Below are positions 7,674-51,675 of a DNA stretch of 64,000 bases, in pieces. Where the stretch lies: assembly GCA_029856125.1 (NCBI GenBank), contig JAHQWJ010000143.1, positions 17,325-81,324 on the forward strand, written 5' to 3'. Position 1 is the first letter of the stretch. Every line of letters starts with the position of its first letter. The position numbers and the translations under genes are program-made. The notes beneath the pieces were generated by a model. That model made no database searches. It saw only the letters and a list, made by a program, of their open reading frames with translations, and was not told where the DNA came from. Source of the DNA: Promethearchaeia archaeon. Lineage in GTDB: Archaea; Asgardarchaeota; Lokiarchaeia; Sigyniarchaeales; SOKP01.

Positions 7674-7777
7674 GGGAGGGTGGTCTAGCTTGGTATGATA
7701 CCTTAGTTTGGACATCTCAAACTTTATCTAATCGGCTGGGGGCCGAGTGGCCGGGGGTTCGAATCCCCCCTCTCCCA
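7674..7777 (+). tRNA. tRNA-Pro(GGG) with 30-nt intron (7702-7731) at position 27/28
   Basis: Acceptor GGGAGGG/CTCTCCC-A; T arm GGGGG-TTCGAAT-CCCCC; anticodon arm CTCGG-CTGGGGG-CCGAG restored by removing 7702-7731; CCA not encoded. Confidence 0.92.
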
Positions 7778-12833: not shown

Positions 12834-12936
12834 AGCCCAGTAGTCGAGTGGATAAGACGCTTGCCTGCGAAGCAAGTGATCAGGGGTTCAATCTTCTTAA
12901 AACTTCTTATAGAAGGAATAATTCCCCTCTGGGCTA
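12834..12936 (+). tRNA. tRNA-Arg(GCG) with 30-nt intron (12892-12921) in the T loop, position 58/59
   Basis: Acceptor AGCCCAG/CTGGGCT-A; anticodon arm CTTGC-CTGCGAA-GCAAG; T stem AGGGG/CCCCT; clear bulge-helix-bulge; CCA not encoded. Confidence 0.93.
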
Positions 12937-48488: not shown

Positions 48489-48821
48489 ATGCCTAATGGT
48501 ACAACCCTTATAATAAGAAATCGAACAGATCGGGAGAAAACTATAAAGGACGCAATTTTTGCATTTTCAGGTGGAACAAAATCGCTACTAATAAAAGGAG
48601 AAGGAGAAGAAATTTCAACTGTGGTTGAAGTTGCTGAAATTTTAAAAAAGCGCATGTATCCCGGTGTGGAAATAGCCAATATCTCGTTAGGAAGCCGTCC
48701 CTTCTTTGAAAATAGGCAAAGGAATAACTATCGAAAAAACAACAGAAACAATTATAATAACAAAAATAAAAAGGATTTAATTTCTAAAATCGAAATAACC
48801 CTTTCAAAATCACTCTATTAG
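48489..48821 (+). CDS. Alba-family DNA/RNA-binding protein (divergent)
   Basis: IKGEGEEISTVVEVAEILK...ISLGS...ISKIEITL follows the Alba pattern. Confidence 0.8.
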   Translation: MPNGTTLIIRNRTDREKTIKDAIFAFSGGTKSLLIKGEGEEISTVVEVAEILKKRMYPGVEIANISLGSRPFFENRQRNNYRKNNRNNYNNKNKKDLISKIEITLSKSLY

Positions 48822-49015: not shown

Positions 49016-49840
49016 TTATTTCGAGTTGGTTAATCTTTTTTCGCTTCTTTTTGTTAAGTATTTCTCCCAATTAAATGACAGTATAAATTGCATTATCGCA
49101 AGCGTGGTTAGTAACATAATAGATTCTGTTATGACACTTGAAATATCACTTACTTCTATTCCTGTTGCCGTAAAACCTAGTAAAATCAAAATTGGAAATG
49201 TGACGTAAAAAATCGTAGTTACATTTTTACCTGCCCAAGCCCATAATATGCAGCGTGGGAAATTTATTTTCTTTCCAGACATTCCTAAAGCTATCCAAAG
49301 TGGATCGTCAGGAATAGGAAGAGCTGCTGCAATAAATATATATAAATGCATAGACTTTGGATGATCTAGCACCAATTTACCAAATCCTTGTACGTTTTCA
49401 AGAGTCTTAGAGTGGGTTCGTTTAACAACTTTCTTTGCACCAATCCCAATCAAGAATCCAACAAGTTCACCAATTGCACTCCCAATGCCTCCTATTACTG
49501 CAATTATAAGTATTTCTAACCAAAAAGGTCCGTTCAAAAGAATTTCACCTAGCGCTAATCCAAGATTTGAATATTTGATGTAAATTGAATTAGAAAGCGA
49601 AAATAATATAAACGGGTAAGGTATTGGAAATCCAATGCTCGCATTTCCTATAAGACAGATGAAAAATGAGATAAGAAGCGCTAATAAATAATTAGATCCC
49701 TCTGTAAGTCCTGTTATCTCATTTCGGGATTTTATTATGGCGTTTTGAATATCTGGAACTGTTAGAAATAAGATTAAATATAATATAACTCCTAGGTAAA
49801 AAAAAGTAAATACTACAATTAATTTGTTAGAAATTGCCAT
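49016..49840 (-). CDS. DedA/VTT-like membrane protein
   Basis: GSAIGELVGFLIG, FIAAALPIPDD. Confidence 0.75.
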   Translation of the reverse strand: MAISNKLIVVFTFFYLGVILYLILFLTVPDIQNAIIKSRNEITGLTEGSNYLLALLISFFICLIGNASIGFPIPYPFILFSLSNSIYIKYSNLGLALGEILLNGPFWLEILIIAVIGGIGSAIGELVGFLIGIGAKKVVKRTHSKTLENVQGFGKLVLDHPKSMHLYIFIAAALPIPDDPLWIALGMSGKKINFPRCILWAWAGKNVTTIFYVTFPILILLGFTATGIEVSDISSVITESIMLLTTLAIMQFILSFNWEKYLTKRSEKRLTNSK

Positions 49841-49864
49841 CCTATACTCCTGAAATGTCTGATC

Positions 49865-50251
49865 TTACGATTTCATTTTAGATATTTTGGTATTCAAACC
49901 ATTATTCGCTTGCAGAAATAATTCGAGATTTTCAGTAACCTTTCCGATTTTATTTACTTTAGACTGTAATTCAGTACTTTCTAAAATAAATATTAATTCA
50001 TCAGATTTAGGGTTATAAATAATATCTCCTTTCTCTACATTTTTCTTAGATTTTGGATTAGGTCCCTTATAAATTTCAAGCCCTGGAAGAATCCAATAGA
50101 GTTTTGATCCAAAACTAAACCTTCCTCTTAGTACTATTGGTAACTTATTAATTATTGCATCAGCTGATAAGGGTGCGTTATATCTTATCATTTCACCAGT
50201 GATTGTGCCTATTCCAAAAAGATCTACTTTTATTTTCATAGACATTTTCAT
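49865..50251 (-). CDS. Cyclophilin-like fold protein (DUF369/DUF3830-like)
   Basis: APLSADAIINKLP, VEKGDIIYNP, VNKIGKV. Confidence 0.7.
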   Translation of the reverse strand: MKMSMKIKVDLFGIGTITGEMIRYNAPLSADAIINKLPIVLRGRFSFGSKLYWILPGLEIYKGPNPKSKKNVEKGDIIYNPKSDELIFILESTELQSKVNKIGKVTENLELFLQANNGLNTKISKMKS

Positions 50252-50324
50252 ATAGAACTTTTTTGTCTGTATCTTATTTCTGAGAGATAATATTGGATTA
50301 AATTAATATTTCTGGATCGCAATA

Positions 50325-50332
50325 TTTAAATA
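50325..50332 (+). promoter_or_regulatory. TATA-like box upstream of the candidate ncRNA
   Basis: TTTAAATA ending about 23 nt before the 5' terminal stem; could instead serve the divergent gene. Confidence 0.4.
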
Positions 50333-50354
50333 TTCTTTTTCCCATCTTACTATT

Positions 50355-50812
50355 TGGACAATAGTTTAAATCATTGGTTTTTGAAACGTAAGTGCAATTA
50401 AACAACGGAGTAGTTGTTGCCTTATTTTCTGGAATTTTTTTCACCCAGAGTTAATGTTAATACGTTGATTTCCAATCGGATTTATTTATTAATTTTTACA
50501 TGTTGCTTAATAATCATTTGTTATTGATTTTGGACGCTTTCAATTATTCTCACGTTGGAGCAATTATTTAGTAGAGAAAAGCAATTAAGTTGTAGTTAAT
50601 ATTTACCTATGGTAATTTGAAGCTGTTTTGCCTGATCTCTTGTAGAACGAATAAAATTTCTATCTGCTACACGTGACATTAAAACATGAAGGCCCTTGTT
50701 TAAAAATAGATTTATTGTCAATAGGGCTTTGATCCCAGATGCGATTCATTGGAACAAATAAGATGATCCATTGAAACAAGTTTTCTGTGATAATCGGAGC
50801 TGCTATTGTCCA
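50355..50812 (+). ncRNA. Candidate large structured non-coding RNA of unknown family (~458 nt)
   Basis: No ORF of 60 aa or more; ends TGGACAATAG / CTATTGTCCA are exact reverse complements; many nested hairpins with + strand G-U pairs. Confidence 0.65.
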
Positions 50813-51675
50813 CTTCTTTTATAGTACTTATTAACAAGTGTTAAATCGAGGGCAGTATCAATATCGTAGAAATTCAGATTTGATTTAACTCCGCATGCCA
50901 AAAATTCCATTTCATTTTTGATTGATGAGTTTACAGCATCAACCATTTTATTTAATTTTATCTTACTAGCAAGACTTTCAAAATTTTTCACATAATCATA
51001 AGTAATAATAAACATCGGGATAATCTGATTGAATTCTTCCTCATCTGAATATGAATTTATATTTCTCTGATATATTTCTGTGACGTACTGTTTTGAACCT
51101 TTTTCCTTCGTTCTTACGCAAGATAACATTTTATTATGTATTGGTCCAAATTTTTCGATCTCTTTATTTAATGCTAATTTGCTAGTTCTTCTGTAAAAAA
51201 TAATGGAATTCTGGTTTACTTTAGTGTAATTTTCTTTAACTAAATTTAAAATTTCTTCAATTAGTTTGTAGTCAAAAATTGTGTCTCCTGGAATAACTAG
51301 AAAAAGTTCATTGGTTTTAAAAACTCGTTTATTGCTGGTAATACTCAGAAAAGAATGCAAAGGACCTAACTTATATCGATTTCCAGCGCTGTTGATTATT
51401 ATCGTTTCGCTTTTGTATAGGTTTTTTGTTTGAGGTGAAATAATTTCTTCCTCAATTTGCTTACCTAAATATCCAGTTACTATTACAATTGATTTAATAC
51501 CAAATCGATATAACTGTGAAATTAGAATTGTAAGAATAGATTGATTCTTTAATGATTCGACTTTTATTAACGGCTTTGGGATATCATCCGCAATTCCTTT
51601 AGCGCGTTTCCCTTCACCTGCACATAGAATAACAATTGTGAGATTTTCCATAAAATTTGTATTAAGTGGTGACAA
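50803..51675 (-). CDS. NTP-transferase domain protein
   Basis: ILCAGEGKR...IPKPLI, PGD, YDIDT-x-x-D. Confidence 0.85.
   Translation of the reverse strand: MSPLNTNFMENLTIVILCAGEGKRAKGIADDIPKPLIKVESLKNQSILTILISQLYRFGIKSIVIVTGYLGKQIEEEIISPQTKNLYKSETIIINSAGNRYKLGPLHSFLSITSNKRVFKTNELFLVIPGDTIFDYKLIEEILNLVKENYTKVNQNSIIFYRRTSKLALNKEIEKFGPIHNKMLSCVRTKEKGSKQYVTEIYQRNINSYSDEEEFNQIIPMFIITYDYVKNFESLASKIKLNKMVDAVNSSIKNEMEFLACGVKSNLNFYDIDTALDLTLVNKYYKRSGQ

Follow-up and report, generated by a model that had tools for sequence, protein, structure and literature searches.

An expressed, single-copy non-coding RNA gene of about 459 nt with its own promoter and terminator in a family of Loki-type Asgard archaea

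Large structured RNAs without an assigned function are rare, and RNase P RNA, OLE, ROOL and GOLLD opened new biochemistry. The RNA described here, encoded within a window of 64,000 nt (the whole stretch of DNA that was analysed) from a Promethearchaeia archaeon, is closest in kind to OLE, ROOL, GOLLD and raiA, which are longer than 400 nt, conserved with covariation, restricted in lineage and abundant, and whose function is not evident from their context. Those RNAs are, however, of bacterial or phage origin, whereas the gene here lies in a fixed genomic slot behind an archaeal TATA promoter. Archaeal RNase P RNA (RF00373) is a second point of comparison, being a stable single-copy RNA of several hundred nucleotides with its own promoter, ends paired in a helix P1, several domains and invariant blocks; it is GC-rich, whereas the RNA here is AU-rich, with a G+C content not above that of its coding flanks, and is confined to one family. 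Archaeal SRP (7S) RNA, which is abundant, shares a terminal helix formed by the paired ends and an elongated hairpin domain, but its model does not match. In Y RNAs of the Ro60 particle, a terminal stem with conserved sequence is formed from both ends and is accompanied by a 3′ oligo-U, features that recur here in an RNA four to five times larger. Sm-class RNAs, which include the snRNAs and yeast telomerase RNA, have conserved single-stranded U-tracts flanked by helices, and archaea carry Sm-like proteins. The conserved U-tracts of the present RNA resemble Sm sites, for which there are no binding data, although they do not consistently read RAU4-6GR, their flanking purines are inconsistent, and the tract of the window copy lies in a hairpin loop.

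The RNA matches no described RNA family, and a literature search found no description of it. Comparison of the region of the gene with Rfam 15 gave nothing at gathering score and, at E ≤ 10, only snoRNA and miRNA scores at chance level, which leaves the novelty claimed in the original prediction intact; 18 diverse members gave nothing at E ≤ 5. RNase P RNA (RF00373 and its clan) was rejected for want of a covariance-model match in the region (E ≤ 10) or in the 18 members (E ≤ 5), and OLE, ROOL, GOLLD and raiA for want of any such match and of any similarity in sequence. Archaeal SRP RNA (RF01857) was rejected in the same way, there being no model match in the region and the best SRP-like match lying on contig C126. 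The original prediction had sought the RNase P and SRP signatures in the gap without success, and RNase P and SRP RNAs are found elsewhere in the genome. The canonical RNase P RNA is on another contig (G000:C137:11165-11488, 124.7 bits). The sole SRP-RNA-like match of the genome (G000:C126:190148-190383) remains below the gathering score with 59.9 bits against 96.5 and aligns with no more of the model than positions 67-307. It represents an SRP RNA that is either divergent or shortened at its 5′ end. A C/D box sRNA was discounted because the snoRNA matches are at chance level only (E 3-9, far below gathering), and inspection revealed no conserved C/D boxes or K-turn near the termini, the 3′-side CUGA varying to CUGU, CUAG and CGGA. 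A Y RNA was likewise rejected: no TROVE (Ro60) gene was found in the organism's own 99%-complete genome, and control genomes gave matches. A La motif search yielded no match in this genome or in any control genome and therefore carries no weight.

The gene occupies an interval without annotated genes, 50252-50802, between two minus-strand genes (Table 1). The first encodes a cyclophilin-like protein. The product of the second looks like a divergent sugar-1-phosphate nucleotidylyltransferase, a sugar-activating enzyme, and on account of this resemblance the idea that it is an RNA enzyme was dropped. The original prediction had placed in this gap an independently transcribed, multi-domain plus-strand RNA of no known family, a proposal that promoter, terminator, G-U pairs, covariation and RNA libraries now support. 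All the sequence features that it had listed are present where it had put them, among them the TATA box, the T-rich tract, the gene overlap and the terminal arms, TGGACAATAG (50355-50364) and CTATTGTCCA (50803-50812), which are exact reverse complements. Elsewhere in the window are a gene for an Alba-family nucleic-acid-binding protein (48489-48821), 1.5 kb upstream of the RNA gene and without evidence of a link to it, and two tRNA genes (7674-7777 and 12834-12905), the first of which probably contains an intron because the match is 104 nt long.

Table 1. Positions in the window of the RNA gene, its signals and structural elements, and the adjoining genes
Feature	Position	Strand	Remarks
Cyclophilin-like protein gene	49865-50251	-	Pfam PF04126
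Archaeal promoter, purine-rich BRE-like stretch and TATA box	50318-50332	+	TATA box TTTAAATA at 50325-50332
RNA gene, about 459 nt	50355-50813	+	Start (about 50355) predicted from TATA spacing; end 50813
P1, 5′ strand (UGGACAAUAGU)	50355-50365	+	Pairs with 50802-50812
P2, 5′ strand, near-invariant (G)CAUUGG motif (CATTGG 50372-50377)	50367-50377	+	Pairs with 50472-50484 in the minimum-energy fold of the window copy
Hairpin AACAAC/GUUGUU, 5′ domain	50401-50418	+	79% paired across the genus, chiefly one-sided G-U changes
Hairpin UCUGG/CCAGA	50428-50449	+	U7 tract (50435-50441) in loop; 73-77% paired
P2, 3′ strand (CCAAUCGGAUUUA)	50472-50484	+	UCCA conserved
GGAGCA block, central domain	50557-50562	+	Conserved in g1 and g12
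Conserved block UGAUCUCUUGU	50633-50643	+	Near-invariant across five genera; pairing partner not settled
Conserved block GCUACACGUGACAUU (consensus GAUACNCGAGACAUU)	50666-50680	+	Near-invariant across five genera; pairing partner not settled
Second, internal CAAUAG	50719-50724	+	Conserved in g1, g12 and g16; directly ahead of 3′ hairpin
3′ hairpin, about 80 nt	50725-50801	+	Stacked on P1; outer, middle and inner helices
3′ hairpin, outer helix GGCUUUGAU/AUCGGAGCU	50725-50733/50793-50801	+	Pairing across relatives
3′ hairpin, inner helix UUCAUUGGA/UCCAUUGAA	50745-50753/50767-50775	+	Pairing across relatives
P1, 3′ strand (GCUAUUGUCCA)	50802-50812	+	Contains nucleotidyltransferase stop codon
Divergent sugar-phosphate nucleotidyltransferase gene	50803-51675	-	Convergent with RNA gene
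T-rich terminator tract	50814-50820	+	TTCTTTT in window; T7-T12 in relatives

The signals at the two ends of the gene are held at fixed distances. From the first base of the TATA box to G50356 there are 31 nt; in all 24 loci of the same genus the box begins 30-31 nt ahead of GGACAATAG, and the distance is identical in other genera. At the opposite end, a T-run follows CTATTGTCC in each of the 24. Both arms, the TATA box at its constant distance and the T-run occur together in all of these loci and also in 74 distinct full-length relatives of 343-571 nt, a co-occurrence that exceeds chance. Strong conservation is also seen in a block at 50273-50314, between the RNA promoter and the divergent cyclophilin-like gene, which is probably the promoter and 5′ leader of the latter.

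Among 24 genomes of the same genus, a DNA search of relatives found 23 in which the cyclophilin-like gene is followed by the gap and then by the nucleotidyltransferase gene. The gap measures 440-905 bp in the same-genus loci (530-650 bp in all but two), and parts of it still match when identity in the nucleotidyltransferase protein has dropped to 30%. A covariance model built from the 3′ 190 nt of the RNA had matches in 92 of 131 genomes from a single Promethearchaeota family (37/41 in genus g1, 48/53 in g12, 5/8 in g16, 1/1 in g19 and 1/1 in g23) and in none of 19 genomes from three sister families. Ninety of the matched genomes have a single match, and two, G013 and G134, have two each. In G013 the whole locus is found twice, on contigs C57 and C117, and, as the contamination estimate of this genome is 9%, two strains in one bin are the likely cause. 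Inspection added five genera missed by the model. In g13, g14, g15 and g18 the same slot holds a TATA box, GGACAATAG followed by GCATTGG, and CTATTGTCC with its T-run, and in g17 an RNA of 363 nt adjoins the end of the nucleotidyltransferase gene, with the cyclophilin-like gene 8 kb away. The g17 loci, L199 (G089:C32:40213-44031) and L101, have this shorter RNA with a 3′ half that is more GC-rich. The RNA is thus present in every genus examined of this Loki-type Asgard family. When 185,579 species genomes were scanned with a pattern, the only matches were Promethearchaeota-type MAGs and bacterial chance matches; the archaeal matches, somewhat more than 60, all carry the cyclophilin-like gene, the nucleotidyltransferase gene or both, and the bacterial ones carry neither. 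Three MAG records in the scan that are labelled Odin-, Hermod- or Hodarchaeota sit on contigs of the same genus as the window. In a sister family that includes two complete genomes, a PRPP-synthetase-like ORF follows the cyclophilin-like gene, and no unit of promoter, arms and T-run was found near nucleotidyltransferase-like genes. The stretch is present once in its own 3.69-Mb genome, so that it is not a MITE; a transposon with terminal inverted repeats was rejected on this count and because the element is always in the same slot, with a single match in 90 of the 92 matched genomes. Syntenic conservation, on which the original prediction had staked its case together with covariation, is found, as is the covariation itself.

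The gap does not encode a protein. No ORF of more than 52 codons crosses it, none is common to the gaps, and the frame in which the conserved nucleotide blocks lie differs from one species to another. Between pairs of sequences 80-99.5% identical, 205 of 249 indels (82%) are not multiples of three, and the substitutions between relatives lack a three-base codon periodicity. A hidden or decayed protein gene was rejected on these grounds.

Terminal helix P1 comprises 11 bp and is 96.9% paired over 74 sequences, with two-sided changes in 5 of its 11 pairs (U-A/A-U, G-C/A-U, C-G/U-A and U-A/G-C/A-U). U-A and A-U both occur at pair 1; G-C at pairs 2 and 3 gives way to A-U in single genera; pair 5 is C-G, U-G or U-A; and pair 11 is U-A, G-C or A-U. 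When the adjoining helix is included, pairing in the 74 distinct full-length sequences is 93.7%, and two-sided changes occur in 10 of 20 pairs, compared with 4.8 ± 1.2 in shuffles and 2-7 in slid controls. The 3′ hairpin is paired in 81.5% of cells and has two-sided changes in 19 of 26 pairs (76 sequences), against 10.9 ± 1.5 in shuffles and 6-9 in slid controls. The alignment of these 76 sequences was fitted to the model, which is a bias in the model's favour; in an unfitted alignment of 22 sequences the same helices are 85-95% paired. Compensatory changes thus support the terminal helix, the helix adjoining it and the 80-nt 3′ hairpin. The G-U pairs also carry information on strand: two near-fixed U-G pairs (71/76 and 65/76 sequences) and the U-G variants in P1 would be A-C mismatches if the minus strand were transcribed. 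Together with the promoter and the terminator they point to an RNA on the plus strand, an assignment made from sequence, since the RNA contigs described below carry no strand information. P1 is a continuous helix without two 3-nt bulges, and a circular RNA flanked by a BHB motif was accordingly rejected; no back-spliced joints were seen among the RNA contigs, which are a weak test.

Six central pairs of P1 and the GCAUUGG motif vary hardly or not at all across the 74 sequences, and the neighbouring pairs covary. This juxtaposition suggests, on circumstantial grounds, that the sequence itself may be recognised, although the invariance of the 3′ arm is due in part to the overlapping stop codon. 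GCATTGG lies 3-12 nt past P1 in nearly all relatives and can pair with a CCAA-type partner 60-100 nt downstream to form P2, which would enclose two or three hairpins. Between lineages the bases after UUGG co-vary with the partner (UUGGAA/UUCCAA, UUGGUU/AACCAA, GGUUU/AAACC). P2 is nevertheless an inferred helix with only moderate support, and no formal test of it was made.

The series of inner helices put forward in the original prediction is present in full in the window sequence, but only part of it is conserved across the genus. AACAAC/GTTGTT and TCTGG/CCAGA are kept in most of the genus (79% and 73% paired) and TTAATGT/ACGTTGA partly so (62%), whereas the remaining inner helices are 54-68% paired. 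The proposed GATC/GATC pairing with CCA-ATG/CAT-TGG is better replaced by the long 3′ hairpin with its 85-95% pairing. The helix AAGGCCCT/AGGGCTTT is 83% paired in the genus, but it competes for bases with the more widely conserved helix adjoining P1, for which g19 shows compensatory changes and g15 a counterpart; possibly the two helices form alternatively. The GGAGCA block pairs, in g12 and in some sequences of g1, with an upstream GUUCC beside AGUGC/GCACU, and in g12 the resulting long-range helix of the central domain, GUUCC..AGUGC with GCACU..GGAGC, is 81-91% paired. No central-domain fold shared by all genera could be derived, g1 and g12 gave differing solutions for the 5′ domain, and the single consensus fold that RNAalifold returned on global MAFFT alignments was limited to P1 and the beginning of the 3′ hairpin. 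The folding z-score of the window copy, for which a value near zero would have told against a structured RNA, is not near zero, yet it is modest (-2.2 on the plus strand and -2.5 on the minus strand).

Natural variants bear on the organisation of the fold. Two deletion variants of 412 nt (L012:2015-2426) and 345 nt (L027:900-1244) lack the 5′-most hairpins or a large part of the centre, and the AACAAC/GUUGUU hairpin is missing from the natural deletion variant L012/L057; the absent modules seem dispensable. Conversely, a 792-nt RNA of the same genus (L024:971-1762, G002:C5) has an insertion of about 300 nt in the region of the 3′ hairpin, and its genome was missed by the 3′-domain model. With whole hairpins lost or 300 nt inserted, the fold appears modular.

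The stretch is present in 20 public runs, including six metatranscriptomes from three studies, and contigs from four RNA runs were compared with 49800-51400. Assembled contigs of this kind report presence and the joining of parts only, and not strand, level or true ends. In RNA libraries from the three studies they together cover 50367-50813. One contig of 428 nt corresponds to 50386-50813, and another to 50367-50695 with adapter remnants on either side. A contig end at 50813 directly abuts adapter sequence in two samples of one study, a weak hint that the RNA ends there. In three of the four runs there was no contig on the flanking genes and nothing upstream of 50367, but missing contig cover is not evidence. 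An 88-nt contig (run X19, record 12; 50389-50450) folds back on itself around the UCUGG/CCAGA hairpin and is probably an assembly artefact of that hairpin. The expression anticipated for the locus is thus borne out, without its strand. Overall, we conclude that 50355-50813 of the plus strand is an expressed, single-copy, independently transcribed non-coding RNA gene of about 459 nt with its own promoter and terminator.

What the RNA does can only be inferred. The reading that we consider the best, and to which we would assign a probability of roughly 0.45, is of a structural RNA, stable and trans-acting, that most likely scaffolds a family-specific ribonucleoprotein; the function has not been demonstrated, and no partner protein or target is known. 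The architecture consists of P1, the 80-nt hairpin stacked on it, a 5′ domain of several hairpins and a central domain with several near-invariant blocks. P1 would shield both ends of the RNA. Protein-binding platforms, for which there are no binding data, might then be formed by the P1 core, by GCAUUGG, by the blocks GGAGC and GAUAC and by the internal U-tracts with their resemblance to Sm sites. The second CAAUAG, which with the following AGC is complementary to the 3′ end of the RNA, could displace the 5′ end in pairing with the 3′ CUAUUG, and this competition would create two conformations. It is the combination of clamped ends, an invariant helix core and motif, a modular body, a single copy and retention throughout the family that the scaffold reading fits best. 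A U-tract in 65 of 74 relatives and the modular variants count for it only as circumstantial evidence. The more specific proposal that the RNA is the core of an unknown ribonucleoprotein machine of Loki-type Asgard archaea, for example an snRNP-like Sm particle or a new ribozyme, with the terminal helix and GCAUUGG as the assembly site, we regard as speculative and rather unlikely.

A regulatory RNA acting in trans, either as a protein sponge through repeated motifs or by pairing with other RNAs through its conserved single-stranded blocks, is possible but doubtful. Short words do recur at positions conserved across genera (CAAUAG twice, CAUUGG twice, GGAGC three times and GAUAC twice), and the RNA is present in the RNA libraries of three studies. 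However, two copies of GGAGC are engaged with one another in a conserved helix, and no target was found. The one complementarity noted is that of AGGAG..UGAUCCAG in the genus consensus to the textbook 3′ tail of 16S rRNA, but pairing with the 16S rRNA 3′ end was rejected since these positions vary and covary with an internal partner.

We consider it improbable that the RNA is a ribozyme or the RNA subunit of a catalytic ribonucleoprotein. Its size is comparable to that of RNase P RNA, and a multi-domain fold of 343-571 nt closed by a terminal helix, with near-invariant blocks that are apparently unpaired, would be in keeping with catalysis. Against this, none of 18 members shows similarity to a ribozyme family of Rfam at E ≤ 5, whole domains have been lost or replaced between genera, and the RNA is restricted to one family.

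There is a comparably small chance that the locus yields several shorter RNAs, whether because the U-tracts act as attenuators or terminators or because a precursor is processed, with the 3′ hairpin and a closing helix CAAUAG...CUAUUG as one product. An internal U-tract of at least 6 nt is found at nt 50-175, mostly around 80-105, in 65 of 74 relatives; these tracts are 6-12 nt long, and many sequences have another at about nt 300-350. Such conserved tracts could instead be attenuators that give rise to shorter RNAs, and the internal CAAUAG could close the 3′ domain on its own. Nevertheless, contigs from three runs bridge the first U-tract, the U7 of the window copy, the 428-nt contig spans 50386-50813, and the covarying pairs of P1 speak for a single functional unit that includes both ends.

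It is also improbable that the element serves the convergent nucleotidyltransferase gene in cis, whether as a terminator or insulator based on its structure or, where the 3′ ends overlap, by antisense regulation. The stop codon of that gene (50803-50805, minus strand) falls within the 3′ arm of the RNA, and this overlap is kept in every genome, even in the genus in which the other neighbour is 8 kb away. The encoded protein ends in KRSGQ (50803-50830, minus strand), its lysine codons corresponding to the T-run of the RNA and GGA CAA TAG to the 3′ arm; in relatives a K-rich tail likewise precedes GQ and the stop codon. A full-length relative of the nucleotidyltransferase was found in g17, the sole genus of the family tested, and not in three sister-family genomes. 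Moreover, one RNA contig, of 953 nt and from a strain 96.5% identical, runs from 50421 to 51348 and continues for 530 nt into the nucleotidyltransferase gene. The overlap, however, is merely about 10 nt and by itself explains the fixed linkage: because the T-run and the 3′ arm encode the last codons of the nucleotidyltransferase, the RNA gene dictates the C-terminus of the protein and locks the two genes together. A conserved 450-nt RNA with its own promoter also far exceeds what a terminator needs.

That the locus is not an RNA gene but a DNA-level element (an origin or recombination site flanked by inverted repeats that bind protein) or what remains of a decayed gene is scarcely tenable. An invariant inverted repeat does surround an AT-rich spacer of about 450 bp, and covariation between the arms of P1 might in principle stem from a DNA-binding site present in two copies, but promoter and T-run stand at fixed distances, covariation extends to the 3′ hairpin in the interior, G-U pairs are confined to one strand, contigs are present in RNA libraries, no reading frame is shared, and an archaeal replication origin (ORB) was rejected since the three Cdc6_C-bearing (Orc1/Cdc6) genes are on contigs C63, C84 and C132 and not on C143, which carries the window.

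The ends of the RNA (the 5′ end as a prediction), a fold validated in part and over 70 natural variants are available and make the RNA directly testable. Its addition to the RNA family databases is warranted, as the gap would otherwise be read as empty or be mis-annotated. The RNA holds a fixed slot in all genera examined of one large family and is found in sediment RNA libraries, and it comes from the Asgard archaea, a group whose RNA biology has hardly been explored and to which, among prokaryotes, the eukaryotes are closest.
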